A stretch of DNA of 62,563 nucleotides, filler included, from Pseudomonadota bacterium (GCA_043825735.1; 5 parts of 5 records of this genome joined end to end with filler, not necessarily neighbours in it); one strand, 5' to 3'; shown: positions 38,013-55,078, numbered from the whole stretch's first letter. Made by a program: numbers and translations. Notes: generated by a model not told the origin, from the letters alone.

Positions 38013-38301
38013 TTTTGATGATGATTTCGGTGATTACGACGACGGCGGTTTCATGGATGACTGCCCCATGGATGATGATTCCATGGAGGATCAGTTCGAT
38101 GAAGCTATGCCCGATGAGGACATGTACGATCCAGGCGATGAAATGACCGGCGCTGGTGAAACTGAATCAGATGGATTCACCGGGGAAGACGCCTTTTTTC
38201 TGGGGAGCGCAGTGGGATGGGCTTACGAGGAGGGCCGTGATGAGGCTGAACGGCGAAGGCTGCTTAAAAAGGAGTGGCACGAAGGCAGGAAAAAGGGTTA
38301 A
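38005..38301 (+). CDS. Highly acidic small protein
   Basis: GGAGG RBS; D/E-rich N-terminal two thirds, basic tail. Confidence 0.6.
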   Translation: MSDFDDDFGDYDDGGFMDDCPMDDDSMEDQFDEAMPDEDMYDPGDEMTGAGETESDGFTGEDAFFLGSAVGWAYEEGRDEAERRRLLKKEWHEGRKKG

Positions 38302-38384
38302 TCTGGATCAATCCTGAACGATAAAATGGGCTAATGGGAATGGTGTTCCTGCGAGGAATGCCATTCCTAAGGCTCTATTAACAA

Positions 38385-38423
38385 ATGATTACGAGATATT
38401 ACCAATATTGGCAAACAGTGCTC
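38385..38423 (+). repeat. 39-bp motif shared with 49718-49756 (putative recombination site)
   Basis: ATGATTacgagATATTACCaATAtTGGCAAACAGTGCTC, 33/39 identical to the copy upstream of the integrase. Confidence 0.7.
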
Positions 38424-38519
38424 ACGTAAAGGAATCGGGATTAGGCTGACGTCGGCCTAATCCATGTTAAACGCGACGTCTATTAAAGATGGATGCTATG
38501 CAAGGTAAGGAGGAAAAGC

Positions 38520-38966
38520 GTGCCCGTAATTAAGCTCTTTATAGGCTCATCATCTGCAGCAAAATCGCAGGCCAAAAAATTTGTTGAAACGCTCTCGAAT
38601 TCTACCATAAGGTTTATACCGTGGTGGGATAGCATCACCCCGGGTCAGTTCTTGTTGGACGAACTTGATTCTATCTATAAAAAAGTTGACGGTGCCGTCT
38701 TGATTTTCTCTCCAGAATCAGAAACGACTATAAGAAAGGACAAAAAGAAAATCCCTAACCTAAATGTCCTTTTCGAGTTTGGATATTTCTTGGGGGCACT
38801 AGAACGAAAGAAAGTTGTATTGGTCAAATATGGCCAGTTCTATTTACCGTCTGACTTTGGTGGGTATCAGTGGATTCATGGCAGTAAGGGCTTCCGCCGT
38901 GGCGGAGTTCAGGCTCTAAGCGTTCGAACAAAAAGAGAGTTCGGCCGCTGGCTTGCGAAATTATAA
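38520..38966 (+). CDS. Stand-alone TIR domain protein (Cap12/Pycsar-effector-like TIR)
   Basis: LFIGSS, PW, D.AVLIFSP, PNLNVLFEFGYFLGAL (catalytic Glu), LPSD..G; AAGGAGG RBS + GTG. Confidence 0.8.
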   Translation: MPVIKLFIGSSSAAKSQAKKFVETLSNSTIRFIPWWDSITPGQFLLDELDSIYKKVDGAVLIFSPESETTIRKDKKKIPNLNVLFEFGYFLGALERKKVVLVKYGQFYLPSDFGGYQWIHGSKGFRRGGVQALSVRTKREFGRWLAKL

Positions 38967-38970
38967 CACA

Positions 38971-39032
38971 GCATAACCCTTGCCACTTCAGCCGGCTGAA
39001 AACAGCGCTGCGGGTGCCTATCGGCGTTATGA
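38971..39032 (+). mobile_element. attC-like integron cassette site
   Basis: GCATAAC (R'') ... GTTATGA (R'), complementary CATAAC/GTTATG ends, 62 bp, immediately after the TIR stop. Confidence 0.55.
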
Positions 39033-39045
39033 AAGAACCCATACG

Positions 39046-39783
39046 ATGAAACTCGATATCATCGAAATGTCACAGATGGAGCATAATTCTGTTGTAGGTT
39101 CTGCAGCCAAGTATGGGACTTCTTTTGTCAATGCTCACGATATAGTAGCCTTCTCTTGGGTTTGCCTTAAAAGTGTGAGACCTGACGCCTTTGCATTCAT
39201 CCTATTCCTAAGCCAATTTCAGAAGAGCATTACTCTAAGTTTACTGTCGGCACTAAGAAACCATGAAGTGCAGTTTAACTTAATGCTTCGTCAGGCTCTG
39301 GAGGCTGGTGCTTTGGCCAGCTATGCACTTCATAGTCCTGATGTTGAAGGTTTTGCTAGAACCGATGCCCACGACTGCCTTTTCACAGACAGAAAAGTGG
39401 CAAAAAAAGCGTACAAATGGCTTGAGTCAGAGTACCCCACTCATTCGAAAAGCATGAAGTATATGAAAGATCAGATCAATGAGTCCTATGCCCATGCCAG
39501 TATATTACCTGCATCAGACAATATCCAATTCGATTTCCACAAGATAGGCTCAACGTTTTTCGACAAACCGGACGAACTAATTACCATCCAACATTTATGG
39601 TGGATCGGGAATGTAGTTATCGGAATACTTGATCTTTTCGAGCATATCACAATGCGCTATCCGAAGGTTACACTGGTGCCGGATTTTCGGAAGAAGATGC
39701 AGAGGTTTGGTCGTGACAACACGCGGATAAAGATAGAGTTACAAACAAATCCACGATTCGCCAGATGGATTCAATTGACATGA
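39046..39783 (+). CDS. Hypothetical all-alpha protein, possibly HEPN-related
   Basis: LRQALE and a downstream YAH resemble HEPN-like/DUF5677-type proteins; AT-rich. Confidence 0.5.
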   Translation: MKLDIIEMSQMEHNSVVGSAAKYGTSFVNAHDIVAFSWVCLKSVRPDAFAFILFLSQFQKSITLSLLSALRNHEVQFNLMLRQALEAGALASYALHSPDVEGFARTDAHDCLFTDRKVAKKAYKWLESEYPTHSKSMKYMKDQINESYAHASILPASDNIQFDFHKIGSTFFDKPDELITIQHLWWIGNVVIGILDLFEHITMRYPKVTLVPDFRKKMQRFGRDNTRIKIELQTNPRFARWIQLT

Positions 39784-39789
39784 TGGTGT

Positions 39790-39847
39790 GCATACCAAAT
39801 TACTGGTTGGAAACAAAAAGCCGCTCCGCGCTGTCCAACCATTAGCC
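39790..39847 (+). mobile_element. Degenerate attC-like site
   Basis: GCATACC ... ATTAGCC (each near the R-box consensus), internal GGTTGGA/TCCAACC inverted repeat, 58 bp after a stop codon. Confidence 0.35.
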
Positions 39848-39860
39848 CCAAGAAGACACT

Positions 39861-42800
39861 ATGAATAATAATATTCACAATTTCCTTCAGAGATTATCAG
39901 CACAATTAGCAACCTTTCTGGAGAGGGAATTACCGCCGCTGTTTGACAACTGGTGGAACAAAGCGGTCGTGAACACTCTATCTTTTCAGCAAAAGAGAAG
40001 ATTGGAGCAGCGCAACATCAAGTCACTGGGTGGCCTTGACCTCGCTGGACTTCTTCGGGTTCTGGACCGGAACTGGTATCAAATTTCCAGCAGCCTATAT
40101 CTGACATCCGAAGCCCGTCATTTCGTAAAGGAAATGCAAACAGTCCGTAATCACTGGGCGCACGCGGACACAGAGGGTTTCCCTATTGACGACATATACC
40201 GGGATCTGGATACCCTCCAGCGTTTTGCGGTTGTTATCGGCGCGGATGACAATCTGATTCAAGATTTACGGAAGACAAAATCGGCTCTTCTCGCGTCGGA
40301 GACCTTGCCACAACCTGACGGAGGCGCAGAAACGCCCTCCGCACATCTGAAAAGGGAAAACGCTGAGGCCGAATTCGTACCCGGGCAAATCGTCTTTGCT
40401 AAATCAAACCCATCAAGCCGTGGCGCTGTGGTTGCCGTGCTGCCGGGCAAGCCTGAGAACCGATTCAAGGTCTTCTTAGAAGGGACGACCCAAACGTTTT
40501 ACGCGTCGCAATTGCAAGCCGAAGACCAGCGTGAGGAAAAGGAAGATGCCTTACCCTGTGACCAATTCCATGCCTATCTCACTGCGCTACAGATTAAGTA
40601 TCCGGGGCTATCCACGCTCTACTCACTCAACGCCGCCCGTGTTGACTTTATCCCGTATCAATTTAGACCGGTATTACGGTTTATTCGGTCTGATCGTCCA
40701 CGCTTGCTCATTGCCGACGGCGTTGGTGTAGGTAAGACCATCGAAGCCGGGCTTATCCTGCGGGAGCTCCAGGCTCGGCGTGAGATACGTTCCGTGCTCA
40801 TTGTCTGCCCACGCCCGCTGGTTACCGAGAAAAAGTGGCTGAACGAGATGAAACGCTTCGAAGAGCGTTTTACCCATCTTGATGGTGCCACCTTGCGGTA
40901 TTGCATCAACGAGATGGATCTAGATGGTGTCTGGCCGGAGCAACATCAGAAAAGCATCGTTCCGTACTCACAGTTCGATGAAACACTCCTGTATGGCTCG
41001 GCTCCCGAGGGGAAGCGGAAGCGGAATAAAGGCCTTCTGGATCTTGATCCGCCACCCCGCTTCGATCTGGTTATTGTCGATGAGGCTCATCACATCCGAA
41101 ACCAGGATACATTCAGCCACAAGGCCGTGAAGTTTTTCTGCGATCACGCGGAAGCGGTAATTTTCTTGACGGCCACCCCGATCCAACTCGGCAGCAATGA
41201 TCTATTTGTTCTTCTGAATACACTTCGCCCCGATCTCATCATCGACCAAGAGAGCTTCTCGCACATGGCTGAGCCGAACCCGTTTATCAATCAGGCGGTA
41301 TCGGCGATGCGGTCTCAAGCGCCGGAGTGGCAAAACCTGGCGGTAGAAGCTCTCGATCAGGCGGCGTCCACGCCCTGGGGCCAGGCCATACTCAGGCACA
41401 ATCCAGATTTTGGTCGGGTCCGCTCCGAGCTCTTGGGAAACGGTGTTACACACGAGGAACGCATAAGGATGATCTCCGATACGGAGGGAATGCTCACCTT
41501 CGCCGGTATCATCAACAGAACCCGCCGCCGCGACATTGGGAATTTCACGATTAGGAAGCCCGAGACGGTCGTCGTACCATTCACTCCGGCCCAGCAGCAT
41601 TTGCACGACGAACTTTTGAGAATTCAGGCTGAAATATTCAGCCAGATTCATAATGGGGTTAACGTGAAGTTCATGATGACCACCATCAGGCGACAGGCGG
41701 CCAGTTGCCTCTTTGGTCTTGCCCCCTTTCTTGAAGAGATCCTCAACCGCCATCTGGATGAACTGTCCTGGGAAGAAGCCGATGACACCGGCGTCCCTGA
41801 GGGCGAGGCCATCATTCACATGCAAAGCCAAATTCAAAATCTGCTCAAGGCGGCTCGTTCCTTGGAATCGAACGACCCCAAGCTCGAAGCTTTGCGAAAC
41901 ATCATTCGGGACAAGCAAAGCCTCCGAAACAATAAGATCATGCTGTTCAGCAGTTTCCGGCATACTTTGGGCTACATCTTCGACCATCTCAGCAAGGACG
42001 GTTTTCGCGTCGGATTGGTACATGGGGGGACGCCGGATGAGGATCGTGTGACCCTTCGCACCCGCTTTGAAAAGCCGAAGGAGGACGAGGGCTGTCTTGA
42101 CCTGTTGCTATTTTCCGAAATTGGCTGCGAAGGTCTCGATTACCAGTTCTGCGACTGCATCGTGAACTACGATCTTCCTTGGAACCCCATGCGTGTTGAA
42201 CAGCGCATTGGCCGTATCGACAGAAACGGGCAAAAGAGCGAGAGCGTCGCCATCGTCAACTTGATCACGCCTGGAACCGTGGATGCGGATATCTACGAGC
42301 GGTGCCTGGTGCGCATCGGTGTCTTCAATAACGCACTGGGAGGGAGCGAGGAAATACTTGGAGAAATCACTCGCGAGATAAAAAACATCGCGGAAAACTA
42401 CGAACTGAGTGAGGATGAGCGCAAGGGGAAGCTCCAGCAACTATCCGACAATAAAATCCGGCTAATTCAGGAACAGGAAGACCTGGAACGGAAGCAGGCT
42501 GAGCTGTTTGGTATTCGCCTCCCCCAAGAGCAGATGAACCGCGAAATTGCCGATGCATCGAGTTTCTGGCTATCACCGGCTTCACTCCGCAGGGTGGTGA
42601 CCCTTTACCTGCAGCGCGTGTGCGGCAAGGACCAGGAGTTTATTCTGGGCGAAAAGCCGCTCAAGACCCTTCGGCTGGCCCAGGAATCCCGTGGCCACCT
42701 TTTAAGGGATTTTCAGCAACTTCCCAGGCAGAACACTTCCGCTTACCGCGAATGGGAAAATTGGCTCAAGGGCGGGAGCCAGCATTTGGCCATCACGTTC

Positions 42801-43436
42801 GAATCCGATTGCGCCATGCAACATCCCGAGGCCGCCTTCATCATGCCCCTCCATCCATTGGTCAAACAGTCGGCCCTGTCATTTGATACCAAACAACGGA
42901 TTATAACTAACCTAACGGTAGTGTCGAACGAGATAGCCGCAGGGCGCTACGAATTCGCCATTTACCAGTGGCGCTTCCACGGCATCAGGGAGGACTTGGT
43001 GCTCAAACCTATCGCTTCGAATGCCGTGGTGACCGAGCATCTTGGTCGTCTTTTGGAGAGTGCGGCGGATTGTCCAAACGCAATACTGGATGGGCTTGGC
43101 GCTTCAGTTTGGGACGCCTTGGATGCTCAGCACTACAGCTTGTGGAGCGATGCGAGAAGCAGGCACCGGCAAAAGACCCAGGAGCTGGCCAGGTACCGGC
43201 GGGAGAGCCTATCCACCAGTCACCGGGCACGGATCGCCCTTCTGGATGAACAGCTCAGCCAAGCGACGAACGAGAAGATTCAAAAAATGCGTCGGTCTCA
43301 AATCGCCGCCGCAGAAGCGGACTACGCAAGGCGAATCCAAGAGTTGGACATCGCTCTGGAGAGAGCGGATATCGTCGCAGGTCCGGTTGCCTATGGTGTG
43401 CTGTTAGTTGAAGTTGGAGGCAAAAATGTTAAATAG
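39861..43436 (+). CDS. SNF2/RapA-family helicase with an N-terminal Swt1-like HEPN domain
   Basis: DLAGLLRV..NW and RNHWAH (RX4H); PYQ, LIADGVGVGKTIEAG, DEAHH, LTATP, EGLDYQ, NYDLPWNPMRVEQRIGRIDR. Confidence 0.85.
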   Translation: MNNNIHNFLQRLSAQLATFLERELPPLFDNWWNKAVVNTLSFQQKRRLEQRNIKSLGGLDLAGLLRVLDRNWYQISSSLYLTSEARHFVKEMQTVRNHWAHADTEGFPIDDIYRDLDTLQRFAVVIGADDNLIQDLRKTKSALLASETLPQPDGGAETPSAHLKRENAEAEFVPGQIVFAKSNPSSRGAVVAVLPGKPENRFKVFLEGTTQTFYASQLQAEDQREEKEDALPCDQFHAYLTALQIKYPGLSTLYSLNAARVDFIPYQFRPVLRFIRSDRPRLLIADGVGVGKTIEAGLILRELQARREIRSVLIVCPRPLVTEKKWLNEMKRFEERFTHLDGATLRYCINEMDLDGVWPEQHQKSIVPYSQFDETLLYGSAPEGKRKRNKGLLDLDPPPRFDLVIVDEAHHIRNQDTFSHKAVKFFCDHAEAVIFLTATPIQLGSNDLFVLLNTLRPDLIIDQESFSHMAEPNPFINQAVSAMRSQAPEWQNLAVEALDQAASTPWGQAILRHNPDFGRVRSELLGNGVTHEERIRMISDTEGMLTFAGIINRTRRRDIGNFTIRKPETVVVPFTPAQQHLHDELLRIQAEIFSQIHNGVNVKFMMTTIRRQAASCLFGLAPFLEEILNRHLDELSWEEADDTGVPEGEAIIHMQSQIQNLLKAARSLESNDPKLEALRNIIRDKQSLRNNKIMLFSSFRHTLGYIFDHLSKDGFRVGLVHGGTPDEDRVTLRTRFEKPKEDEGCLDLLLFSEIGCEGLDYQFCDCIVNYDLPWNPMRVEQRIGRIDRNGQKSESVAIVNLITPGTVDADIYERCLVRIGVFNNALGGSEEILGEITREIKNIAENYELSEDERKGKLQQLSDNKIRLIQEQEDLERKQAELFGIRLPQEQMNREIADASSFWLSPASLRRVVTLYLQRVCGKDQEFILGEKPLKTLRLAQESRGHLLRDFQQLPRQNTSAYREWENWLKGGSQHLAITFESDCAMQHPEAAFIMPLHPLVKQSALSFDTKQRIITNLTVVSNEIAAGRYEFAIYQWRFHGIREDLVLKPIASNAVVTEHLGRLLESAADCPNAILDGLGASVWDALDAQHYSLWSDARSRHRQKTQELARYRRESLSTSHRARIALLDEQLSQATNEKIQKMRRSQIAAAEADYARRIQELDIALERADIVAGPVAYGVLLVEVGGKNVK

Positions 43437-46400
43437 CGCATTTGAGCATGTTACTCGCATCAGATGTGAAAAATACGGCTTAGATAAGCATGGGAATTTG
43501 AATGGTGTAAATCCTCTTGCCTCCGATCTTAGGGATTCAATTGATCATCTCGCGCAAGGGCTATATACCAGGAATGCACACTTCATATTTGAGTTGATTC
43601 AAAATGCCGAGGATAACGCATATGGTAATAATATAGAGCCCTCATTAACGTTCAGATTGCTTCGAGACGATCCAACTAAAACCCCTGGTGCGGATGGTGT
43701 AATAATAGTTGAGAACAATGAAGTAGGTTTCTCTCCGGAAAACATCGATGCAATTTGTGCAGTCGGGAAATCTACAAAAAAGAAGCAAGAAGGTTTTATA
43801 GGTGAAAAAGGAATAGGTTTTAAATCGATATTCCGAGTAACATCTATTCCATTTCTATTTTCAAACGGCTATCGGATTTCATTGCCTAAAAATCATAAGA
43901 AAACGGGACTCGGATTTATCGTTCCTGAGTGGGCCGAAAACATTCCACAGATAATCGACACTTCAATAACCTCAATTGTATTACCTTTGGATCAGCCAGA
44001 ATTCGGATACGATGTCGTTAAGAAAATGCTCTGGGAAATAGAGCCGGAAACAATTCTATTTTTATCGAAACTAAAGGAAATCAAAATAGTCACAGATCAC
44101 AGTGAAGGATTCACGGTGATTAAAGATGATAGCTCCGAACCGAACATACAACTACTAACAAATAAGAATGGGTATGATGAAATATTTGAGTTCCTTTTAT
44201 TCAAAAGAATCTTTGATAAACCGAAAGATATAAATCATGAAAAAAGAACTGATGTAAAAGAACGTGAAGTTTCTATTGCATTTCCTGTAGGCGTAAAGCC
44301 AAACAGTGCAGGAAAATTATTTGCTTACTTGCCTGTGCGCTACGATACTGGATTTCCGTTCATTATTAATGCCGATTTCATTCTTCCTAGCTCCCGAGAA
44401 GATATTCAGGATACGCCATGGAACCGTGAATGGCTGATGCCATGTGTAGGGGCGCTTGTTTCTATCTCCCTACCCATACTCAAAGACAATAAACAACTAT
44501 CTATTTCCTTTCTCCATTCGCTTACCAAATCTGTTTTGTTGTTAAATGAAAATAATATGTATTATCCAATCGCCAAAGCTGTAAAAGAAGCTTTTACCAC
44601 TTTGGAACTTATACCGGCCGATGATGGTTCGTTCGTTTCCGCCGGGAATGCCAATCTGGCCAGTGCAGACTGGTTGAGAAAATTGCTTCGAGAGGAACAA
44701 CTAAAGCTACTTTACAAAAAAGAACTGAAATGGGTTCATGGCGATATAACTGATAAAGGACGACATGAGCTTTGGAAGTATTTTCGCGAAGGGCTAAAAG
44801 TCGATGAGCTGACGCCGGATGGATTTGCCCGAAGAATAGATTTAGCATTTCTATCTAACCAAAGTGATCAGTGGATAATCGACTTTTATACACAACTACC
44901 AAATCAAAAAGCACTTTGGAAAAAGGGATCGGGCAGCTATTGGGATGCCGACGGTCCACTTAGAAAAAGGCCATTCGTACGATTACAAGATGGCTCACAC
45001 GTAAGGCCATTTGATGATAACGAAAAACCGAATGCCTATTTAACTACGAAAACGCTTATTGACGCCCGACTGCCAACTGTAAAAACTGAGATTGCAAGTC
45101 ATGATGAAGCACGCCGATTTCTGCTATCTGATTTGAAAGTTCCAGAATTCGATATCGTTGCCGAGGTTACCGAGCATGTGATCCCCAAATACACATCACC
45201 GAACCTTCCCAAAACTGATGAGCATGAGCGCGATATTGAAAAAATTATGGAAGCTTTTCAGACCGACTCTCAAGAAAACCGAAAAAGACTGAAGAATGCT
45301 TTACAAGAGACGCCTTTCATTTTGTCACGATCATTAGTCTCCGGTGACGAGGCATATCGAAGACCGGATTCCTTGTATTTTCAGGACGAACCCTTGGAAA
45401 TTTATTTTTCAGAAAACCCTGAGGTTGGCTTTGTCAGCTCGAGCTACCAGGAATCAGCGTTGGAGATTTTTGCCAATCTGGGAGTTTCTTCAGAAATACG
45501 CGTAAAATGCAAACCTTGGACTGGTTCACAAGATTACATCAAGCTTGAATATCAATCAGGATACAGGCGTGGGCTAAGAGGATTCGATCCTGATATTAGC
45601 GTAGAAGGACTATCACAGGCTCTTCTGAAGCCATCAATGGAGAAGAGCCAAATTATCTGGAATAAAATTTGTCTGCCCTATAGTCGTTGTATCAAAGGCA
45701 AGATTTTAAGATCAAGTAGGCAGGACTTCTCGCCCAACGCAAGCACTTATAAAGAAGAGGAGTTTGTATCTGAAGAATTCGGGAAATTATTGATTAACTC
45801 ATCATGGCTGCCAACTGAGAGAAATGGATTTAAAAAGCCAACAGAAATTAGTCTCGAGGAACTTCCCGATCAATTCGAACGAGATGAAAAGCTGGCCGGT
45901 TTTATCGGAATGAGAAAAACAGAAAAAGTTAAAGCCGCTGATATCTTATCCGAAGGCAATCCTCGAAAAAAAGAGTTGCTTGAGCGGATAGCCAATGCAT
46001 CGGATGATGAGCTTGAAAGGTTTGAAAAACTCGTGCCAAGATCAATTCCACCGACCCCTGCACCGTCATTTAGAGAGGGACTTGCCAATATGAGCAGGCG
46101 TCAACATGGGAACCTTTCCTCCAAGATAAAAAATAGTGAAGGGGGGCAAGACCACCCTGTCAGAAACCCTGAGCGTTATCAGAACAATCTTGATGATGCT
46201 GTCACTGATGGGGTTGAGGAACACACGACAATTCCTCATACTGTACAATTCTCTCCGGTACGCGATAAACCAGATAACAAAGAGGCTCGAGAATTTCTCT
46301 ACGTTGAATACCATGGTCAGTGTCAGATTAAGGGCACGACCTTCCCGAAAGCAGCTGCCAATTCCGAAGGCATTCCGAAAAACTATTTTGAAGCTTGCAG

Positions 46401-46659
46401 TCTTTTACCATACAGCAATGCCTGTTATCTCAATGACGCAGGTAATATGCTCTGCGTAAGTGCCGACACTATGGCAAAGCTAAAATACGCCAGTTTTGAA
46501 TGGCTGGATGACATTATGGATAAAGTCGCTGAATTTGAGGATGGAGGCGGAAAAGCACAACGTATTGGAATAAAAATCAAACTAGCAGGTGAGGAGTGCA
46601 TTATTACATGGAGCCAGCGGCATTTTATGCGATTAATTTCCCTGTATAAGCAAGCCTGA
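43426..46659 (+). CDS. Sacsin/NOV-like GHKL ATPase with a degenerate C-terminal HNH-like domain
   Basis: HFIFELIQNAED, NNE.GF, IGEKGIGFKSIF, FAYLP, INADF..SSRE; start overlaps the helicase stop with a GGAGG RBS. Confidence 0.8.
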   Translation: MLNSAFEHVTRIRCEKYGLDKHGNLNGVNPLASDLRDSIDHLAQGLYTRNAHFIFELIQNAEDNAYGNNIEPSLTFRLLRDDPTKTPGADGVIIVENNEVGFSPENIDAICAVGKSTKKKQEGFIGEKGIGFKSIFRVTSIPFLFSNGYRISLPKNHKKTGLGFIVPEWAENIPQIIDTSITSIVLPLDQPEFGYDVVKKMLWEIEPETILFLSKLKEIKIVTDHSEGFTVIKDDSSEPNIQLLTNKNGYDEIFEFLLFKRIFDKPKDINHEKRTDVKEREVSIAFPVGVKPNSAGKLFAYLPVRYDTGFPFIINADFILPSSREDIQDTPWNREWLMPCVGALVSISLPILKDNKQLSISFLHSLTKSVLLLNENNMYYPIAKAVKEAFTTLELIPADDGSFVSAGNANLASADWLRKLLREEQLKLLYKKELKWVHGDITDKGRHELWKYFREGLKVDELTPDGFARRIDLAFLSNQSDQWIIDFYTQLPNQKALWKKGSGSYWDADGPLRKRPFVRLQDGSHVRPFDDNEKPNAYLTTKTLIDARLPTVKTEIASHDEARRFLLSDLKVPEFDIVAEVTEHVIPKYTSPNLPKTDEHERDIEKIMEAFQTDSQENRKRLKNALQETPFILSRSLVSGDEAYRRPDSLYFQDEPLEIYFSENPEVGFVSSSYQESALEIFANLGVSSEIRVKCKPWTGSQDYIKLEYQSGYRRGLRGFDPDISVEGLSQALLKPSMEKSQIIWNKICLPYSRCIKGKILRSSRQDFSPNASTYKEEEFVSEEFGKLLINSSWLPTERNGFKKPTEISLEELPDQFERDEKLAGFIGMRKTEKVKAADILSEGNPRKKELLERIANASDDELERFEKLVPRSIPPTPAPSFREGLANMSRRQHGNLSSKIKNSEGGQDHPVRNPERYQNNLDDAVTDGVEEHTTIPHTVQFSPVRDKPDNKEAREFLYVEYHGQCQIKGTTFPKAAANSEGIPKNYFEACSLLPYSNACYLNDAGNMLCVSADTMAKLKYASFEWLDDIMDKVAEFEDGGGKAQRIGIKIKLAGEECIITWSQRHFMRLISLYKQA

Positions 46660-46861
46660 CGGCAGCATCTCAATGTTCTCCCGTATATATCTGCCGAAGG
46701 AATATGATTTACTGACCCAATAAGAATTTTTTCAAAATTCTACCCTTGAATAGAGAAAATAACTCACCAAAACCCCGATTTTTTTCATTACTTTCCTGCC
46801 ATTATTCACCCGCACTAAATTAGCAAAACAGCTTTCTGCTGAGCTGAAATCTGGAAAATTC

Positions 46862-46890
46862 ATTTCGGTTACTGCCGATACCAACGAAAT
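46862..46890 (-). repeat. Dyad resembling a tyrosine-recombinase core site; distant inverted relative of the 39-bp motif
   Basis: ATTTCGGTTAC-TGCCGA-TACCAACGAAAT; the reverse complement shares TCAGGAAT..TA..GGCA spacing with the 49718 motif. Confidence 0.45.
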
Positions 46891-47013
46891 TCCTGATATT
46901 TATGGCCTGTAAATCCATAAATACCTGTATATACATCGAATAAACTAACCTCTCTTACTGGTAGAGACCGATTTTTTTTGTGTCTCGAAATCCAAATATC
47001 AGGAGGTTCACAC

Positions 47014-47292
47014 ATGAACATGAGTGAGAAAACATTTTCAATTGGCGATGCAGCCCGGTTTGCCGGGGTGACCGCCAGACAGCTCAGAAACTGGCAGGAC
47101 TGCGGTTATCTGGGCGAGGTCGAAAGAGTGGTATGCGGTGACCGCGCCTACCGCAGGTATTCCCTGAAGCAGGTTAATCTCATCGAAAAGATCGCCGAGT
47201 ACCTCAACAAAGGATTCACCCTCAAAACGGCAGCTCAGAAGGCCGGAGAGGACTATCCAACGGTTGTGAAGGGAGGTGGCCAGAATGCGTAG
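47014..47292 (+). CDS. MerR-type HTH protein (possible excisionase/regulator)
   Basis: FSIGDAARFAGVTARQLRNW..G..YRRYS; AGGAGG RBS. Confidence 0.82.
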   Translation: MNMSEKTFSIGDAARFAGVTARQLRNWQDCGYLGEVERVVCGDRAYRRYSLKQVNLIEKIAEYLNKGFTLKTAAQKAGEDYPTVVKGGGQNA

Positions 47293-47485
47293 AAGGATAC
47301 CGCCTAAAACACCCCAGGTGAAAACCTGTCCGTTGCTTGGAGAGAATTGTCTCAAGTCCGGCTGCGAAATTTTCAATGAGCTCTTGGACCGGTGCGATTT
47401 ATCAGTGCTCTCGTACAACCTGTATCGATTGTCGGAGGCAATGAAGCATAATCTTGAAGCCGAGGTTAAACCAGAGCTTCGATAA
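47285..47485 (+). CDS. Small Cys-rich hypothetical protein
   Basis: CPLL..CLK.GC..C; conserved, with synonymous changes, in the second copy. Confidence 0.7.
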   Translation: MRRRIPPKTPQVKTCPLLGENCLKSGCEIFNELLDRCDLSVLSYNLYRLSEAMKHNLEAEVKPELR

Positions 47486-47533
47486 GAATTATAGCCCGTC
47501 CTTTTTGGGGCGAGCGAGTTTTAAGAAATATCA

Positions 47534-47725
47534 GTGAATAAAAGGAGAATAATAGTGGACCAGAGAATGATTGAGATGAGACAAAAATTTTTTAACATGT
47601 ACAAACACAATTACCAGCTATCGAATGGAGAGTACGACCTTGCTGGAATCATTGGGATATATGCGATTTGGGGATGCGAGTTGACTCCAGACGAAAAAGC
47701 CTATTGGAATTATCTCCAATCGGAA
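47534..47725 (+). CDS. Hypothetical protein, truncated by the contig end
   Basis: Open to the contig end; duplicated at 54887. Confidence 0.5.
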
Positions 47726-47825
47726 NNNNNNNNNNNNNNNNNNNNNNNNNNNNNNNNNNNNNNNNNNNNTTAATTAATTAANNNNNNNNNNNNNNNNNNN
47801 NNNNNNNNNNNNNNNNNNNNNNNNN
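47726..47825. other. Artificial contig linker
   Basis: N run with TTAATTAATTAA. Confidence 0.98.
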
Positions 47826-47826
47826 C

Positions 47827-48009
47827 GATGTGTACAAGGCGATAAAGGCCATCAATCCGAGCGCACGGGTGTTGCTTTCCAGCGGCTACAGCCTGGACTC
47901 TCAGGCCCAGGACATCATGGCACAAGGCTGCGGTGGATTCATCCAAAAGCCCTTTGATCTGAGCAGTCTTGCCCACAAGATGCGTGAGGTGATGGGGGGG
48001 AAAGTGTGA
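47827..48009 (+). CDS. C-terminal receiver domain fragment of a hybrid kinase/response regulator
   Basis: INPSARVLLSSGYS..GCGGFIQKPF. Confidence 0.8.
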   Translation, partial: DVYKAIKAINPSARVLLSSGYSLDSQAQDIMAQGCGGFIQKPFDLSSLAHKMREVMGGKV

Positions 48010-48057
48010 ATCAGCAATTCCGGCTAACAGTGAACCATGGCGCCGATACGTCTTGAA

Positions 48058-48150
48058 CAGATACGAAAAGGCAAAGCCATCGAAAGGTGGTGACGCAAAG
48101 CCACGGATCTAACACCGAGAAAGTCGGTCATGATCGCCGGGTTGCCAGGT
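48058..48150 (+). promoter_or_regulatory. Cyclic di-GMP-I (GEMM) riboswitch
   Basis: GGCAAAGCCATC-GAAA-GGTGGTGACGCAAAGCCACGGATCTAA...GATCGCCGGGTTGCC: P2 with GAAA tetraloop, GCAAA junction, P3 with tetraloop receptor. Confidence 0.88.
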
Positions 48151-48154
48151 AGCA

Positions 48155-48197
48155 GACCTCCTGCCCGTCGCGTTATGACTGGTCCAGGGGGTTTTTT
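48155..48197 (+). terminator. Putative riboswitch expression-platform terminator
   Basis: GACCTCCTG pairs with CAGGGGGTT, followed by a T run just before the ATG. Confidence 0.55.
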
Positions 48198-48201
48198 CGT
48201 T

Positions 48202-48615
48202 ATGAGATCAATACTTGGATGGGTTGCTTGTGCGATCGTGGTGTCCGCTATCGGTATCATGGCTGTTTGCTATCATCGAGAAGTATCCGATGAAGAAACA
48301 ACATTCAGGCAGGGTCGCCTTTACCGGAAACTGGACGTTAAGCCATATACCGGCATTGTCACGGGCATTGAGAATGTGCCTGGGGAGCCTGTGCTGAAAT
48401 ATCGCAAGATGTACGTTGATGGCTTCCAGCATGGGGATTCCAACTATTTTTTCGCGAACGGGAATTTGGCCAGAACTGAACCATACATGAACGGGCAGAT
48501 AAATGGCATCATGACATACTACTACGATAGCGGCCAAACCTGCGCCCAGATTCATCTCGTCAATGGTGAGAGAGGCGGCAGATACGGTGAGGTCTTTTTC
48601 GAGAGATTAAAATAG
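48202..48615 (+). CDS. Membrane-anchored MORN-variant repeat protein (YwqK-like)
   Basis: N-terminal hydrophobic segment; PYTG, Y.DG..HG..YF.NG, Y.NG..NG..YYDSGQ repeats. Confidence 0.75.
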   Translation: MRSILGWVACAIVVSAIGIMAVCYHREVSDEETTFRQGRLYRKLDVKPYTGIVTGIENVPGEPVLKYRKMYVDGFQHGDSNYFFANGNLARTEPYMNGQINGIMTYYYDSGQTCAQIHLVNGERGGRYGEVFFERLK

Positions 48616-48628
48616 ACTGATCTTCTAC

Positions 48629-48724
48629 ACAGCCTTTTTAGATAGTCATTCCTCTAAAAAAATTCCAGAACGACATGATTGGACCGGGCACATATAGCGC
48701 CTATGGAAAGGCAGTATTCCTGTC
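48629..48724 (+). repeat. Diverged direct repeat, copy 1 (copy 2 at 53990-54082)
   Basis: First 35 nt match at 29 positions (core AGTCATTCCTC); CGCCTAT recurs at offset 69/68. Confidence 0.6.
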
Positions 48725-48790
48725 AGCGTAAAACCGAGCAATACCATTTCAAAGCCGGGGCCGGGACCATCCCTTCCCCGGCTTCATGTT

Positions 48791-49628
48791 TTATCCGTAG
48801 ATGGTCTCAACCCACCGAATGGCCTCCTTGTCGCTCACCTTGCCCAGATAACGTTGCGTCGTGGACAGGTTCGCATGTCTGAGGATAACCTTGCTGACGA
48901 TCTCTAAGGGAGCGCCGGCACGGGATGCGTAGGTGGCTGCATGGCGCCGGAGATCGTGGGGCCTCAGATGGATACCGACCTTCTTGCCAGCTTTTCTGAC
49001 TACCTCCCGGGCGGCAGTATACTGGATCTGAAAAATCCTTTCATCACGGGAAAGGTTCTTGTCCCGGATATAGAGTTTCAACCGGTCTGCCACCTTCTGC
49101 GGAATGAACACCACCTCAGAGCTTTTCCCACTTTTTGGCCTGATGAGGCGCAGCTTCTGGTCGTCGGCGTCCTCCACCTTCAATTTCAGCACCTCACCAA
49201 TGCGCATACCGCCCCTGGCCATGAGCTCCAGCATGATCCGGTTCCGGACATTATCGGTTCGGAAAATGATCTCATCGACCACGTCCTTTTCAAGGATGTT
49301 CCAGTGCCGACCTTTGGAGGGCCGGAACGTTTTCCTGAGCAGGGGTGTGTCGCAGGGATTGTGCAGATCGCGCTGGATGTTGTTGCGGATGAAATTGAAA
49401 AACGATTTGAGGAGGGTGTACTTGTAGCGTTTGGTGGATCGTTTAAGGCCTTCAGTGACCGAGGTCAGAAAGGCCAGAATGTCGTCCGGTGAAACGACCT
49501 CAACCCCGCGGCCTCCGTACCGCTCACCGAACTTGCGAAGATACAATTCATTGTTCTTGACCGCATTTTTTTCCAGAATTGAGCCTCTGATAATCCATGT
49601 ACCGGTCGATGGCCTCTAAAATTTTCAT
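48791..49628 (-). CDS. Tyrosine recombinase/integrase, split by a +1 frameshift at GGA7
   Basis: GMRIGE, K, HDLRR, ILRHANLSTTQRY catalytic set; AAGGAGG RBS + ATG 49628; frames switch at the T7 run 49566-49572. Confidence 0.88.
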
Positions 49629-49717
49629 GGCAGCCTCCTTTCGGCTTTGAAAAGTTTTGACAGCAGGCGCTCAGGCCTGTTAAGACCAGAATACCTGTTT
49701 CAAGGTGCAAAATTTAT

Positions 49718-49756
49718 ATGATTCAGGAATATTACCGATAGTGGCAAACAGTGCTC
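49718..49756 (+). repeat. 39-bp motif shared with 38385-38423 (putative recombination site)
   Basis: ATGATTcaggaATATTACCgATAgTGGCAAACAGTGCTC, about 90 bp upstream of the integrase start. Confidence 0.7.
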
Positions 49757-50046
49757 GGTCCCTCAGGGCCACTGCATCAACCGAGGGTTAGTGGTGCCAT
49801 TCCTCGGCTCTGCCTTCTTCTGTTTCCTATATGTTTGCGTTTACAGCCCATTGTGGCGTACTCTCATACCGTAACTCGAACTGGCCATTCATTACCGCTG
49901 ACCTGGGCCTTATACTGTTGTAAATACCATCAGTATCCTTCGGTTTTATAGCACTCGAGGATGCCAGCGGCGATCATCCCCCCAGCAGGCGATTTCAAGT
50001 CAATCTCTTGATTCTTTTTATCCTTTCAAATGAATGGGTAACGATC

Positions 50047-53000
50047 ATGGCGATAAAAAAGAAAAAACCGCGGCCCGTCAAAGAGAATTTGTCCAAAAAA
50101 GACGAACCAGAGAAGAAACCGGAAGATGGGGGTTTTCCCATCGTGGGGATCGGCGCCTCGGCCGGTGGACTGGCGGCTTTTGAGGCTTTCTTTTCCGGCA
50201 TGCCTGCAGACAAGGACCCCGGCATGGCCTTTGTCCTGGTGCAGCACCTGGCCCCGGACCACAAGAGCATCCTCACCGATCTCATCCAGCGATACACCCG
50301 CATGCAGGTCTTCGAGGTCGAAGACGGGATGGCCGTGCGCCCCAACTGTGCCTACATCATCCCCCCAAACCGTGACATGGCTCTTTTGAACGGAACGCTC
50401 CAATTGATGGAACCATCGGCCCCGCGCGGCCAGCGTCTGCCCATTGACTTCTTTTTCCGCTCGTTGGCGCAGGACCAGCGCGAGCGGGCCATCTGCATCG
50501 TGCTTTCGGGCACCGGCAGCGACGGCACTCTTGGCGTTCGGGCCATCAAGGGCGAGGGGGGCATGGTCATGGCCCAAAACCCGGATTCCACAGAATACGA
50601 CGGGATGCCGCGAAGCGCCATCGCGACCGGCATGGTCGACTACGAGCTGCCGCCGGCCGAGATGCCGGCCCAGATCATTTCCTACGTGGCCCATGCCTTC
50701 GGAAAACCCCAGCGCTCCGCCACCGCCCAGGCGCCCAAGGCCGAGAACGCATTGAAAAAGATTTTCATCGTACTGCGCGCCCAGACCGGCCATGACTTTT
50801 CCCAGTACAAACCGAACACCATCAGCCGCCGTATCGAGCGGCGCATGGCCGTCCACCAGATCGAAACGATCGAGGTCTACCTCAAGTATTTGCAGCAGAC
50901 GACTGCGGAGGTGGAAGCGCTTTTCCGCGATCTGTTGATCGGTGTCACCAATTTTTTCCGCGATCCGGAGGCCTTCAAGGCGCTTGAGGAAAAGGCCATT
51001 CCCAAGCTCTTTGCCGGCAGGCCCGCAGACGCAGTGATCCGCGCCTGGTCAACGGGATGCTCCACCGGTGAGGAAGCCTATTCCATCGCCATACTGCTGC
51101 AGGAACGCCTCGATGTGTTGAAGCGACATTTCAAGGTGCAGGTTTTCGCCACAGACATTGACAGCCAGGCGATTGCCACGGCCCGGGCCGGCATTTATCC
51201 GGCCAGTATCGCCGCCGATATATCGCCGGAGCGTCTGGCGCGTTTTTTTTCGGCCGAGCCCAATGGGAAGGACGGCGGGCCGAGCGCCTACCGCATCCAC
51301 AAAAGCATCCGGGACATGCTGGTCTTTTCCGAGCAAAATGTTATCAAAGACCCGCCTTTTTCCAAACTCGATCTCATCAGTTGCCGCAACCTGTTGATCT
51401 ATATGGGCGGGGAGCTGCAAAAAAAGCTCATGCCCCTGTTTCACTACTCGCTGAGACCGGGCGGTTTTCTCTTTCTTGGCACCTCGGAGACCGTGGGAGA
51501 CTTTGGCGATATGTTTGCCGTGCTGGACCGAAAATTGAAGCTTTATCAACGCAAGGAGGATATTCACAGCGCGCAGCGCGCGGCCCTGGGCCGGTTTCTG
51601 CCGCCCATAACGGCGATCGATGAAGCGCTGCCGCGGCCCCCCGAAAAGGTGGCCGTCGCCGGGAAACTGCCGCTTCGGGAGCTGACCGAACAGGCGCTGC
51701 TGCAGCAGGTCGCCCCGGCCGGCGCGCTCGTCAATGGACACGGCGACATTCTCTATCTCCACGGCCGCACCGGTCTATACCTTGAGCCGGCTCCGGGTGA
51801 GGCTGGAATCAGCAACATCTTGAAGATGGCCCGCGAAGGGCTGCGGCGCGATCTGACCACGGCCCTTCACAAGGCCGCATCGAGCAAAGAGATCGTTTGC
51901 CGTCCGGGCCTTCTCGTCAAAACCAACGGCGATTTTACAACGGTCAAGCTGACAGTCCGCCAGGTAGCCGCCGGCCCTGCCGCGATGCCTGAGACGCCAC
52001 TTTATCTGGTCACCCTCGAGGAAGCGCAGCCCTTTGCCCCGGAACAGGCGCAAGAGGCCGCCGCCTATCATGCCGGCGAAGGCGCGGGCGGCCTCGATTC
52101 GACAGCCGCCGATGCGCGCATCGAAGCACTAAAGCAGGAACTGCGGGCCAAGGAGGAATACCTCCAGAGCACCAACGAAGAGCTGGAGACCTCCAACGAA
52201 GAGCTCAAGTCCTCCAACGAGGAGATGCAGTCAGTCAACGAAGAATTGCAGTCCACCAACGAGGAGCTCGAGACCTCCAAGGAGGAATTGCAATCGGTCA
52301 ACGAGGAACTGGCCACGGTCAACGCCGAGCTTCAAACAAAGGTCGCGGATTTATCGCGAGCCAATAACGACATGAACAATCTGCTGGGCGGCACGGGCAT
52401 CGGTACCGTTTTTGTGGATTTTCAACTGCGCATCCTGCGCTTCACCCCAACCGCCACCAGTATCATCAATTTGATCCAGAGCGATATCGGCCGGCCCGTG
52501 GGCCACATCGTTTCCAATCTGGCGGGCTACGACAATCTATTGGCGGACACGCAATCTGTGCTGGACACTTTGCTGCCCAAAGAGACGCAGGTGCAGACCA
52601 AGGGGGGCAAGTGGTACACGATGCGCATCCAGCCCTATCGCACGGTCGACAACGTGATCGAAGGCGCGGTGATCACATTTGTGGACATCACCGAGGTAAA
52701 GCAAGCGCAAATAGCGCTGCAAAAGGCCAATGCGCTGAACCGTCTGGCGGTGGTGGTGCGCGACGCGCATGATGCCATCACCGTGCAGGATCTGGATGGC
52801 CGCATCATTGCCTGGAACCCTGGAGCGGAGAGAATGTATGGCTGGAGCGAGGCCGAGGCCCTTCTTATGAACATCTGCGACCGGACCCCGGAAGGGCTGC
52901 GCGAGGACGCGTTGGCCATTGTCCATCAGCTGAGCCAGGCTGAAGTGATAGAGCCTTATCGCACACAACGGATCACCAAAGAGGGCGCTGTCGTGGAGGT

Positions 53001-53124
53001 ATCTGTGATCTCAACTGCGTTAATAAATGAGAACGGGCAGATGTATGCCATTGCGACAACCGAACGGCCGATAGCTCCACGCAAAGGGTCCACGGTGGAG
53101 GTGCAAAATGACCCGCAAGAATAA
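50047..53124 (+). CDS. CheB/CheR fusion protein with coiled coil and PAS domains
   Basis: GASAGG, VQH, SGTGSDG (CheB); [17 protein letters not shown] (CheR); ELQSxNEEL heptads; C-terminal PAS. Confidence 0.92.
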
Positions 53125-53911
53125 CCGGCCAGATGATGCCGTCGAACTTCGCCGGCGTGCCGAAGAGATCATCCGGGAAAAAGCGGCGCAGTCGCCGGAA
53201 GATCTTGAGGCGCTCTCTCCAGAAAAAATGAGAGAGATGCTCCATGAGCTGAGGGTGCATCAGATTGAGCTCGATATGCAAAACGAGGAATTGCGAAGGG
53301 CTCAGGTAGATCTGGAAGCTACGCGGCAGCGCTATTTCGACCTTTATGACCTGGCCCCTGTGGGCTATTGCACCATATCCGAAAAGGGGCTGATCTTGGA
53401 AGCCAATCTCACCGCCGCAACCCTTTTGAGCGTGAGCCGGAGTGCGCTGGTCAAACAACCGCTCACCCGGTTCATCCTCAGTGAAGACCAGGACATCTAC
53501 TATCGGCACCGCAAACAGCTCTTTGAGACCGGCGAGCCGCAGGCGTGCGAACTGCGGATGGTACAACAAGACGGCACATTCTTCTGGGTGCATTTGGCAG
53601 CTACCGCCGCCCAGGAAGCGGACGGAGAGTCAATTTGCCGCGTCGTGATGAGCGACATCACCGATCGAAAGAGATCGGAGAAGGAACGGGAGTTGCTGAT
53701 ATCCGAACTGACCGATGCCATGAGGCAGGTGAAAAAACTGAGTGGGCTTTTACCAATATGCTCTTATTGCAAGAAGATTCGGGATGACCAAGGATATTGG
53801 AACCAAATTGAGTCTTACATCCATGAGCATTCGGAAGCGGAATTCAGCCACAGTGTTTGCCAAGAATGTGCCAAGAAACATTACCCCGATATGGACATCT
53901 ATGGCGGTTAA
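53108..53911 (+). CDS. PAS protein with a C-terminal Cys-rich domain
   Basis: HELRVHQIEL.MQNEEL, APVGY PAS, LLPICSYCKKIRD..SHSVCQEC. Confidence 0.8.
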   Translation: MTRKNNRPDDAVELRRRAEEIIREKAAQSPEDLEALSPEKMREMLHELRVHQIELDMQNEELRRAQVDLEATRQRYFDLYDLAPVGYCTISEKGLILEANLTAATLLSVSRSALVKQPLTRFILSEDQDIYYRHRKQLFETGEPQACELRMVQQDGTFFWVHLAATAAQEADGESICRVVMSDITDRKRSEKERELLISELTDAMRQVKKLSGLLPICSYCKKIRDDQGYWNQIESYIHEHSEAEFSHSVCQECAKKHYPDMDIYGG

Positions 53912-53989
53912 ACAGACTCAAACATAATCCTAAGCACAACTCTCGGGCACCCTGGAAACACCCACCATGCCAATCCTTGACGGTTCAAT

Positions 53990-54082
53990 ACAGTCCTTTT
54001 CGACAGTCATTCCTCGAAAATAATCCGTTCAAAATTGGTTGTATAACCAGCGGACAACGCCTATCATTGGTCTATGCCAGTC
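53990..54082 (+). repeat. Diverged direct repeat, copy 2
   Basis: See 48629-48724. Confidence 0.6.
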
Positions 54083-54365
54083 GACGAGCTTCAATAGACC
54101 AATATCTGACTCATTCCATCGGTGCACATTTTTCTGTGCATCCTGAGCTCATCTAATGGAATCGTAACGGCTTCATCCGCACCTCCTTGCGGTCCGCGCC
54201 TCCCAGTACTGGGCACACTGGGGGGCGCTTCTTTGTTTAACCCAGGCGCCACCATTAATTCCGCACCTTCCTCAGTCTCACCTACCGACGAATAAACTAA
54301 CCTCCCTTACTGGTAGAGACCGATTTTTTTTGTGTCTCGAAATCCAAATATCAGGAGGTTCACAC

Positions 54366-54644
54366 ATGAACACGAGTGAGAAAACATTTTCAATTGGCGA
54401 TGCAGCCCGGTTTGCCGGGGTGACCGCCAGACAGCTCAGAAACTGGCAGGACTGCGGTTATCTGGGCGAGGTCGAAAGAGTGGTATGCGGTGACCGCGCG
54501 TACCGGCGATACACACTGAAGCAGGTCAGTCTCATCGAAAAGATTGCCGAGTATCTCAACAAAGGATTCACCCTCAAGATGGCAGCGCAGATGGCAGGTG
54601 AGGATTATCCAACGGTTGTGAAGGGAGGTGGCCATAATGCGTAG
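54366..54644 (+). CDS. MerR-type HTH protein, copy 2
   Basis: Near-identical to 47014-47292. Confidence 0.82.
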   Translation: MNTSEKTFSIGDAARFAGVTARQLRNWQDCGYLGEVERVVCGDRAYRRYTLKQVSLIEKIAEYLNKGFTLKMAAQMAGEDYPTVVKGGGHNA

Positions 54645-54837
54645 AAGGATACCGCCTAAAACACCCCAGGTGAAAACCTGTCCGTTGCTTGGAGAGAACT
54701 GTCTCAAGTCCGGCTGCGAAATTTTCAACGAGCTCTTGGACCGGTGCGATCTGTCCGTTCTCTCGTACAATCTTTACCGATTGTCGGAGGCAATGAAGCG
54801 GAATCTTGAAGCCGAGAGCAAACCAGAGCTTCGATAA
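54637..54837 (+). CDS. Small Cys-rich hypothetical protein, copy 2
   Basis: Near-identical to 47285-47485. Confidence 0.7.
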   Translation: MRRRIPPKTPQVKTCPLLGENCLKSGCEIFNELLDRCDLSVLSYNLYRLSEAMKRNLEAESKPELR

Positions 54838-54886
54838 GAATTATAGCCCGTTCTTTTTTGGGGCGGGCGAGTTTTAAGAAATATCA

Positions 54887-55078
54887 GTGAATAAAAGGAG
54901 AATAACAATGGACCAGAGAATGATAGAGATGAGGCAGAAATTTTTTAACATGTACAAACACAATTACCAGCTATCGAATGGAGAGTACGACCTTGCTGGA
55001 ATCATTGGGATATATGCGATTTGGGGATGCGAGTTGACTCCAGACGAAAAAGCCTATTGGAATTATCTCCAATCGGAA
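54887..55078 (+). CDS. Hypothetical protein, copy 2, truncated
   Basis: Near-identical to 47534-47725. Confidence 0.5.

Follow-up and report, generated by a model that had tools for sequence, protein, structure and literature searches.

Two contigs with a common site, unrelated cargo and a shared MerR module

We analysed a 62.5-kb window of DNA from a sulfate-reducer-like 6.8-Mb metagenome-assembled genome (MAG) of 160 contigs (G000), whose relatives, as retrieved with its genes, are MAGs of Desulfobacterales and other Thermodesulfobacteriota. The window consists of five whole contigs (C74, C77, C79, C80, and C82) linked by N spacers, and our subject is a 39-nt motif that occurs on the third (C79, 35784-47725; hereafter contig 3) and on the fourth (C80, 47826-55078; contig 4). 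We give about an even chance to the interpretation that this motif is one of the composite sites at which an integron-like, Xer-type cassette/platform system carries out site-specific recombination. The two copies (38385-38423 and 49718-49756) agree at 33 of 39 positions and have in common the perfect 15-mer TGGCAAACAGTGCTC (38409-38423 and 49742-49756). An original prediction made for this DNA had drawn attention to the shared motif, to a common ~790-bp MerR module on its right, to unrelated cargo in between, to a tyrosine recombinase near the motif on contig 4, and to a switch in GC content at the motif on contig 3, and all of these are borne out by the features described here.

Each site consists of a core with a left and a right arm, for which we distinguish left types A, B, and C and right types X, Y, and Z; positions within a site are given relative to the first core base. 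Contig 3 begins with 2.6 kb of island backbone (35796-38301, plus strand) encoding a DUF932 protein that is truncated at its 5' end by the contig start (35796-36422; Pfam DUF932, 3e-07), a SLOG-like protein whose SLOG match lies below the cut-off (36531-36998), a further open reading frame (ORF; 37071-37418), and an acidic protein (37963-38301). This DUF932-SLOG-acidic block has paralogues at 80-85% nucleotide identity on two other contigs of the genome, C69 and C73. Site copy 1 (38385-38423, plus strand) follows as a partial A-type left arm with the core at 38409-38423; similarity to the C69 paralogue stops inside this core, and from position 0 onwards the right arm is common to the sites C90_62607 and C112_53942 and to C59. 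This X-type right arm (38424-38492, plus strand) contains a perfect hairpin or palindrome in the fold (38438-38463), and in BLAST it matches C90_62607 at 82% and C112_53942 at 77% over 0 to +91. GC content changes at the motif from 57-59% before it to 44-46% after it, and ranges from 42 to 54% in the cargo (38493-46659, plus strand), where Pfam and PADLOC models identify defence-type genes: a TIR effector-like gene (38493-38966), a gene for a 267-aa protein of unknown kind (38980-39783), a DrmD-like SNF2 helicase gene with a HEPN_Swt1 N-terminus (39861-43436; PADLOC DrmD, 5e-117), and a gene for a TmtA/sacsin-like ATPase (43408-46659; TmtA-like, 4e-100). A doubtful site remnant was seen by eye near 46840-46875, and the contig ends with copy 1 of the MerR module (46937-47725, plus strand), which comprises a box GAATAAACTAACCTC, a MerR-family ORF (46978-47292), and the start of another ORF (47534-47725).

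On contig 4, the gene for a Xer-like tyrosine recombinase of ~278 aa (48791-49628, minus strand) diverges from site copy 2 (49718-49756, plus strand), which has an A-type left arm with the near-palindrome ATTCAGGAAT and the core at 49742-49756. The Y-type right arm (49757-50007, plus strand) is a non-coding leader of ~200-250 nt that is 81% identical to C112_81175 over 0 to +199, starting from position 0, and that also matches C90_54088 and C11. The cargo (50008-53911, plus strand), as identified with Pfam, encodes a 1038-aa CheB-CheR-PAS fusion (50008-53124) and a PAS protein with a Cys-rich C-terminal domain (53108-53911). It is followed by a decayed B-type left arm with a core remnant (53984-54120, plus strand) that aligns with the extended left arm of C112_53942; the alignment is good up to ...GCCTATCATT and weak beyond, and the core is decayed too. 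Copy 2 of the MerR module (54289-55078, plus strand; MerR ORF 54330-54644, partial ORF 54887-55078) ends with the contig.

Several other features of contig 4 stand apart from the site. Since the first ~140 nt of its 5' end (47826-48080) are also found at the 3' ends of C9 and C51, the left neighbour of the contig is ambiguous; on C9, a further site precedes this end by 4.4 kb. A cyclic di-GMP-I riboswitch (48060-48149, plus strand; 79 bits, E 2e-14) immediately precedes an ORF for a 161-aa MORN-repeat protein (48130-48615) and extends over its start. Within the CheB-CheR-PAS gene, six copies of a 21-nt periodic repeat (52135-52323) encode a heptad-like NEEL.S. coiled-coil stretch. The Cys-rich C-terminal domain of the small PAS proteins, together with a downstream box TTTTCGACAGTCATTCCTC (53705-54064 in the window), is present on many contigs of the genome (C112, C11, C40, and C144 among them) and recurs at the ends of several gene units just before a site.

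The two MerR modules form a single 790-bp match with 94.6% identity (46937-47725 and 54289-55078), and each contains a 104-aa MerR-family ORF (Pfam MerR_1) and the start of a second ORF. Both copies reach the exact ends of their contigs, the last 200 nt share 128 21-mers, and the summed depth of sequencing run X1 over the module on contig 4 is ~57-59, compared with ~23 elsewhere on that contig; the right edge is therefore where the assembler stopped in a repeat of at least two copies. The right boundary of the module is thus an assembly break inside a repeat and not the end of an element. No contig of the bin overlaps the 3' end of either contig, and the 64-aa partial ORF after MerR has no homologue among longer proteins. 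In a search of the wider genome contig collection MerR relatives were found at only two loci, and paralogues in this genome (48-52% amino acid identity) lie on C69 and C73, on long contigs and within islands, where their neighbours are a helix-turn-helix protein (C69) and a D5_N primase-helicase (C73).

These islands place the MerR module in its context. The C73 island runs from tRNA-Asn through a 422-aa integrase, an AlpA-like gene, small genes, and the D5_N primase-helicase (1.9e-38) to an 87-aa ORF, MerR, the cargo, an acidic protein, SLOG, DUF932, and a UvrD-like helicase; its cargo is one 1299-aa protein (PD-Lambda-4_A, 4e-298). The C69 island is built in the same way beside tRNA-Arg and has a 427-aa integrase; the labels integrase and AlpA-like in these two islands come from reading the sequences and not from a family scan. 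C69 and C73 thus have the features of tRNA-integrated primase-helicase islands, of which no more than the DUF932/SLOG/acidic and MerR parts are present on contigs 3 and 4. The MerR side starts, in all four copies, at the box GAATAAACTAACCTC, ~70 nt before the MerR start, and not at a copy of the motif. The proposal that the MerR module is a second site of the same element was accordingly abandoned: it is instead the conserved MerR-proximal part of these islands. At a locus in a Desulfobacteraceae MAG (L126, 8027-10261), DUF932, SLOG, and the acidic gene are followed after ~110 nt by the box and then MerR, with neither cargo nor core; by this gene order it is an empty version of the island slot. 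Sites with a C-type arm and core are found facing outward beside the divergent UvrD-like helicase gene (C69 at 53761, C30 at 13230, and the loci L107 and L117), that is, at the other end of the island block, so that the block is bracketed by two inverted sites.

These observations bear on another account, in which satellite-like primase islands have a defence hotspot whose conserved flanks underwent ordinary homologous recombination, so that the cargo of contigs 3 and 4 came to differ, with the motif as a passenger. The islands on C69, C73, and contig 3 do share their backbone and MerR side and differ in cargo (PD-Lambda-4 on C73; DrmD, TmtA, and TIR on contig 3), and the slot of L126 is empty, as this account would have it. 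On its left side, however, contig 4 shares with contig 3 just 39 nt and none of the backbone, and the same core lies at breakpoints far from any island. We therefore regard homologous exchange as an improbable explanation of the difference.

A multi-copy core with exchangeable arms

The exact 15-mer occurs five times in the 6.8-Mb genome and not once for the reversed pattern and nine shuffled patterns; with up to one mismatch there are nine occurrences against 0-2 in the controls, and with two or more mismatches the counts do not exceed the controls. The part common to all copies of the site is an 11-nt core, TGGCAAAYAKT, which has 34 matches in the genome compared with 12 for the reversed control. 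Recognisable arms accompany 20 of these 34 matches, as judged by reading of the listing, and the remaining 14 are near chance level. Eight further sites share arms and have a deviant core (C112_53942, C112_71978, C59_8495, C59_3297, C37_1189, C69_53761, C115_73606, and C15), which gives ~28 composite sites in total (22 of which were recognised by a crude regular-expression typing) and agrees with the claim of a multi-copy family. Most of these ~28 cores are distant from any MerR gene, so the notion of a slot defined by motif plus MerR was not upheld.

Left arms extend over 50-140 nt and right arms over 90-350 nt. Among the left arms, type A has the form ...TCATTCC...GATTCCGGAATATTA-N7-8, type B the form TCATTCTGCAATTGG...CAGGTTGA.TAGAGGAA.A, and type C is a relative of B that lies beside the divergent UvrD gene of the islands. 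Right arm X is the perfect palindrome GGATTAGGCTGACGTCGGCCTAATCC; Y (GGTCCCTC...CCGAGGGTT.TTGG..CATTCCTC) is ~200-270 nt long and Z (TTCTGCGGT...ACGGATC..AGCAGAAAT) ~350 nt, and right arms beyond these three also occur. A arms adjoin either the 278-aa Xer-like recombinase or the end of the island backbone, and B arms come after gene ends; with A arms at platforms and B arms at the ends of gene units, the arrangement has the geometry of attI and attC.

We compared ±1500 nt around 18 sites in an all-against-all BLAST, in which left-arm matches end at +4 to +17 and right-arm matches begin at -5 to 0, so that the arms are exchanged at the core. All six combinations of A or B with X, Y, or Z are present: A-like with X on contig 3, B with X at C90_62607, A with Y on contig 4, B with Y at C112_81175 and C11_83795, A with Z at C115_69050, and B with Z at C59_7478. 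Even at sites with arms 80-92% alike, the genes that follow them are unrelated. Contig 4 and C15 share 31 identical nt (the A arm and TGGCAAAC), with unrelated DNA on either side. The C15 copy (L123, 5159-5182) is a solo A arm with TGGCAAAC, and an Mla-type ABC transporter operon ends 64 nt before it; ~105 nt away is the start of a DDE_Tnp_1_4 transposase gene, and similarity stops just past TGGCAAAC, as if an insertion sequence (IS) had landed in the core.

Arrays of sites are found on C59, C112, and C115. On C59, tRNA-Phe is followed by four sites 1.0-2.1 kb apart that separate one- or two-gene units encoding unknown, TPR, RES, and Tae4-like proteins, and C112 has at least six sites on one strand. 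The unit on C115 spans 4.5 kb (locus L026, 4051-8620) and comprises genes for an HNH nuclease, a DUF4297 protein (PADLOC, 6e-46), and a HerA ATPase (1e-173) between an A+Z and a B+X site, with the B arm starting ~60 nt after the HerA stop codon; a known two-gene defence system with a nuclease is here a whole cassette flanked by two sites. The order of cargo and then B arm, in that case decayed, recurs on contig 4.

The site family extends to a Desulfobacterales MAG of another family (G018, here MAG8) with ~16 composite sites (21 matches at up to two mismatches compared with five for the control), whose arms are again mosaics of the G000 types. Of the 31 genomes searched, two have the B arm, namely these, and a genome of the same genus lacks it; as far as presence and absence can tell, this distribution fits horizontal spread. 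The same-genus genome without the B arm (G001) measures 4.1 Mb against 6.8 Mb for G000, and the two observations together hint that a large accessory fraction was acquired horizontally or that the binning was mixed.

Their modular build from a few arm types, their intergenic and multi-copy occurrence, and arms that are conserved next to unrelated flanking genes would also suit mosaic intergenic repeats of the kind of bacterial interspersed mosaic elements or repetitive extragenic palindromes (BIME/REP), BOX elements, or miniature inverted-repeat transposable elements (MITE), spread by another mechanism or by gene conversion, with only an incidental link to the integrase. Such repeats would not explain why the spacing between core and integrase start is conserved in distant homologues with unlike arms (see below), terminal inverted repeats and target duplications were not seen, and the family is missing from the same-genus genome yet present in another family. 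We consider this explanation rather improbable.

Candidate RNA structures at the sites were also considered. Rfam 15 gave no site match at E <=1 in window positions 35784-55078 or at <=0.1 in five loci with B, X, Y, and Z sites; the only matches in these scans were the cyclic di-GMP-I riboswitch and a tRNA. A tRNA-like origin of the core was rejected, as ARAGORN returned nothing at the sites. A hairpin or attC-like fold is doubtful, with folds that are weak and inconsistent and compensatory changes that were not seen by eye; some Y-type sites would allow GGCAAAC ... GTT-N6-GCCA to pair (two of seven folds have z -3.0 and -3.1), and X-type sites lack this pairing.

A Xer-like recombinase with an out-of-frame N-terminus

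The body of the contig 4 integrase (48791-49546, minus strand) matches Pfam Phage_integrase (PF00589) at 1.9e-22, and its N-terminal ATG at 49628 lies 89 nt from the motif, with the core 113-114 nt from the start codon. The genome has a single other copy, on C112 (94% amino acid identity), which is accompanied by the same A arm and core. Both copies have the catalytic domain of the tyrosine recombinase superfamily with the R..K..HxxR..H..Y residues and are open through the catalytic Tyr. The closest models are XerA, XerC, and XerD, and the nearest solved relatives are Xer proteins, although scores fall short of the cut-offs (115-120 bits for XerA with a cut-off of 220; 53-64 bits for XerC/D with cut-offs of 330-335). 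The integron integrase models are more distant still from their thresholds: NCBIfam integrase_gron gives 41.8-52.6 bits (cut-off 265) over model positions 13, 14, or 33 to 178-180 of 315, and PRK15417 gives 29-39 bits (cut-off 435). The enzyme is not IntI. The intI-attI likeness that had been suggested for this locus therefore holds in its layout, but not for the enzyme, which fails the IntI models, nor for the sites, among which canonical attC was not found.

Homologues with 56-68% identity were found at 78 loci of the genome contig collection, and the ~278-aa Xer-like integrase family is widespread in Desulfobacterota; among plasmids there was no integrase relative at E <=1e-20. The association of motif and recombinase that had been put forward extends to both copies in this genome (contig 4 and C112) and to the MAG8 relative. 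Further afield, GGCAA[GA] is found in site orientation within 300 nt of the start codon in 21 of 49 homologues (56-68% amino acid identity), compared with 3 of 49 for the reversed control, and TGGCAAG lies at 91-114 nt in 12 of the 49 distant homologues, that of the window being at 114. Paralogous integrase loci in other genomes (L035/L036/L037 and L038/L039) are alike as far as TGGCAAG and diverge beyond it, and their genomes have extra site copies 2-5 kb away on the same strand. The site of another genome (G031) is matched strongly four times in that genome, as two same-strand pairs with spacings of 3.7 and 4.3 kb, and weakly twice. A platform site beside a divergent integrase, followed by a co-oriented array, is the layout on contig 4, at C112_44543, and at L111; on C112 both sides of the integrase have sites. 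This family of small (~278 aa) Xer-like tyrosine recombinases is most likely the one that serves the sites. Lack of any link of the motif to integrases or breakpoints elsewhere, which had been named beforehand as the finding that would count against the original prediction, was not what we observed, as the motif also lies at breakpoints of synteny or similarity at other loci.

The first 20 codons of the contig 4 integrase are in a different frame from its body, and the shift coincides with an A7 run at 49567-49573 (read as T on the plus strand). Across 50 family members (49 loci, within L029-L085, and the window), which were classed by run and frame partly by reading of the listing, a run of A7-A9 is present at the same place in 42, and the frame is broken in 36 of these 42. 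Together with another copy whose run is mutated and whose frame is likewise broken, 37 of 50 members need the loss of one A or a +1 shift; the members lacking the run are in frame in seven of seven cases. Three sequencing runs show no indel in the run of the contig 4 gene, and as the copies come from many assemblers and studies, the run is a conserved feature and not damage. It could act through transcriptional slippage, frameshifting, or phase variation, and the conserved out-of-frame N-terminus suggests slippage-controlled or phase-variable expression of a tyrosine recombinase. To judge by the reading frames, the recombinase is probably near-silent through the A7-A9 run, which may serve as a switch, and slippage there would be needed for the full-length protein. 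Full-text searching, within the part of the literature that it covers, found no report of a tyrosine recombinase with a slippery run.

Proposed cassette exchange and comparison with known systems

If the composite sites are recombination sites, the core would be cut and rejoined by the Xer-like enzyme, with strand exchange within TGGCAAAY joining a platform site to that of a circular unit. Such an exchange would insert a unit of one to several genes behind the platform, repeated insertions would give rise to arrays, and decay of the distal site would fix the cargo. Defence systems, toxin-antitoxin-like genes, and PAS/chemotaxis signalling genes would be the cassettes that move as units, and contigs 3 and 4 would represent two platforms with different cargo upstream of two 95%-identical MerR-proximal island copies. 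As islands carry platforms without such an enzyme, these would depend on an enzyme supplied in trans.

A number of observations weigh against this reading. No circle, empty junction, or convincing core joint was found when the contigs of four sequencing runs (X1-X4) were compared with contig 4; one joint (49905>53970), whose shorter side is supported by 29 letters, could be explained by repeats, and a loose contig end at 49719 is the C15 copy. No whole cassette was found in two contexts by tblastx with 35 cassette or downstream segments; what these have in common is limited to arms and generic domains. On neither contig 3 nor contig 4 is the cargo bordered on its right by an intact core. The 15-mer of the window is found within three mismatches upstream of one of 65 homologues with enough upstream DNA, the MAG8 copy, and the family-wide link consequently rests on the short TGGCAAG. 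Predicted hairpins at the sites are weak (z -0.1 to -3.1), with stem variants that are uncompensated by eye in the sequence listing, and no inverted second arm for binding, as is usual in the cores of tyrosine-recombinase sites, was found around the core.

Some of the evidence fits equally with a regulatory module, which is the main alternative: core and arms would take no part in recombination and would be a promoter or operator with a conserved 5' leader that controls a regulon made up of accessory genes. At most sites a co-oriented ORF follows 85-430 nt downstream, and the right arms (90-350 nt) are leader-like and conserved upstream of unrelated genes. On the opposite strand, TTGCCA could be the -35 box of the integrase promoter: a sigma-70-like TTGCCA-18 nt-AATCAT on the minus strand spans the contig 4 motif, whose A arm has a ATTCCGGAAT dyad, and the ATTCNNGAAT dyad in the spacer would then be an operator, perhaps for the MerR-like protein. 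A conserved island block with outward-facing sites at both ends is also compatible with regulation. The alternative has difficulty with the arm swaps, however, which fall exactly at the shared 15-nt core, a stretch too short for repeated homologous exchange, and with the B and C arms, which have no integrase to drive. A promoter scan gave one promoter-like site compared with 0.9 expected, reading of the X, Y, and Z arms by eye showed no -10 box at constant spacing downstream of the core, and the first downstream ORF is on the opposite strand at 4 of 18 sites. The sigma-54 consensus has GG and GC 10 nt apart (TGGCAC-N5-TTGC); a sigma-54 promoter was rejected on the spacing of the core, which is GG-N8-GC and not GG-N10-GC. 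Taken together, we consider the regulatory explanation unlikely; were it correct, the sites would define a large regulon of accessory genes with an unusual modular upstream region.

Returning to recombination, we tentatively put forward, at somewhat less than an even chance, the broader proposal that Desulfobacterota carry a second, independently evolved integron-like system. Its Xer-type recombinase would be switched on only by slippage at A7-A9 and would exchange gene units at the 11-nt core between platform and cassette-end sites, building arrays of defence, toxin-antitoxin, and signalling genes and giving islands an anti-phage slot. In the portion of the literature open to full-text searching, no description of an integron-like Xer-type cassette system of this kind was found. 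If the core works in recombination, cassettes are captured outside the IntI/attC world, and integron-like gene shuffling would have evolved more than once. This would explain how defence hotspots in integrative islands are refilled, would make TGGCAAAY with its arms a handle for mobile gene units in Desulfobacterota metagenomes, and would, by way of the conserved out-of-frame N-terminus, bring a recombinase into the group of enzymes that homopolymer slippage controls.

The closest parallels are sedentary chromosomal integrons with homogeneous attC repeats, such as the Vibrio cholerae repeats (VCRs) of Vibrio, and clusters of attC sites lacking integrases (CALINs). As in these, a tyrosine recombinase gene diverges from a platform site, same-strand arrays of sites separate unrelated units that are often defence or toxin-antitoxin genes, and the sites are far more similar than the genes that they flank, with many of them distant from any integrase. 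As the enzyme fails the IntI models and canonical attC was not found, the system is not a member of the integrons. It differs from them in its ~278-aa Xer-like enzyme, in the lack among its sites of RYYYAAC / GTTRRRY boxes and a supported folded attC, in a conserved core that each unit has on its 5' side, together with long right arms, in units that can be multi-gene and up to many kb long, and in platforms inside tRNA-integrated primase islands.

P4-like satellites and other integrative islands reportedly have defence hotspots, and the present islands resemble them in pairing a primase-helicase island at a tRNA gene with a variable anti-phage slot (here PD-Lambda-4, or DrmD, TmtA, and TIR). 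They differ in that the DUF932, SLOG, and MerR-like island proteins are not the P4 set, and in that the slot has at its left border a discrete site, linked to a recombinase, that is also found outside islands. Xer-dependent modules, namely integrative mobile elements exploiting Xer (IMEX) and modules bounded by plasmid dif sites (pdif), likewise have short sites at their boundaries and a small two-domain recombinase without an arm-binding domain, and the enzyme here is nearest to XerA, XerC, and XerD. Unlike in those modules, a 28-30-bp dif-like site with two inverted 11-bp arms was not found, the XerA score (115-120) stays below its cut-off of 220, and the sites are in direct and not alternating orientation. 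Lastly, slippery A-runs are known from IS transposase genes, and homopolymer tracts from phase-variable genes. The recombinase described here similarly needs a frame change at a family-conserved A7-A9 run near its 5' end, but the change is the loss of one A or a +1 shift, in place of the -1 shift that is usual in IS3 and IS1.

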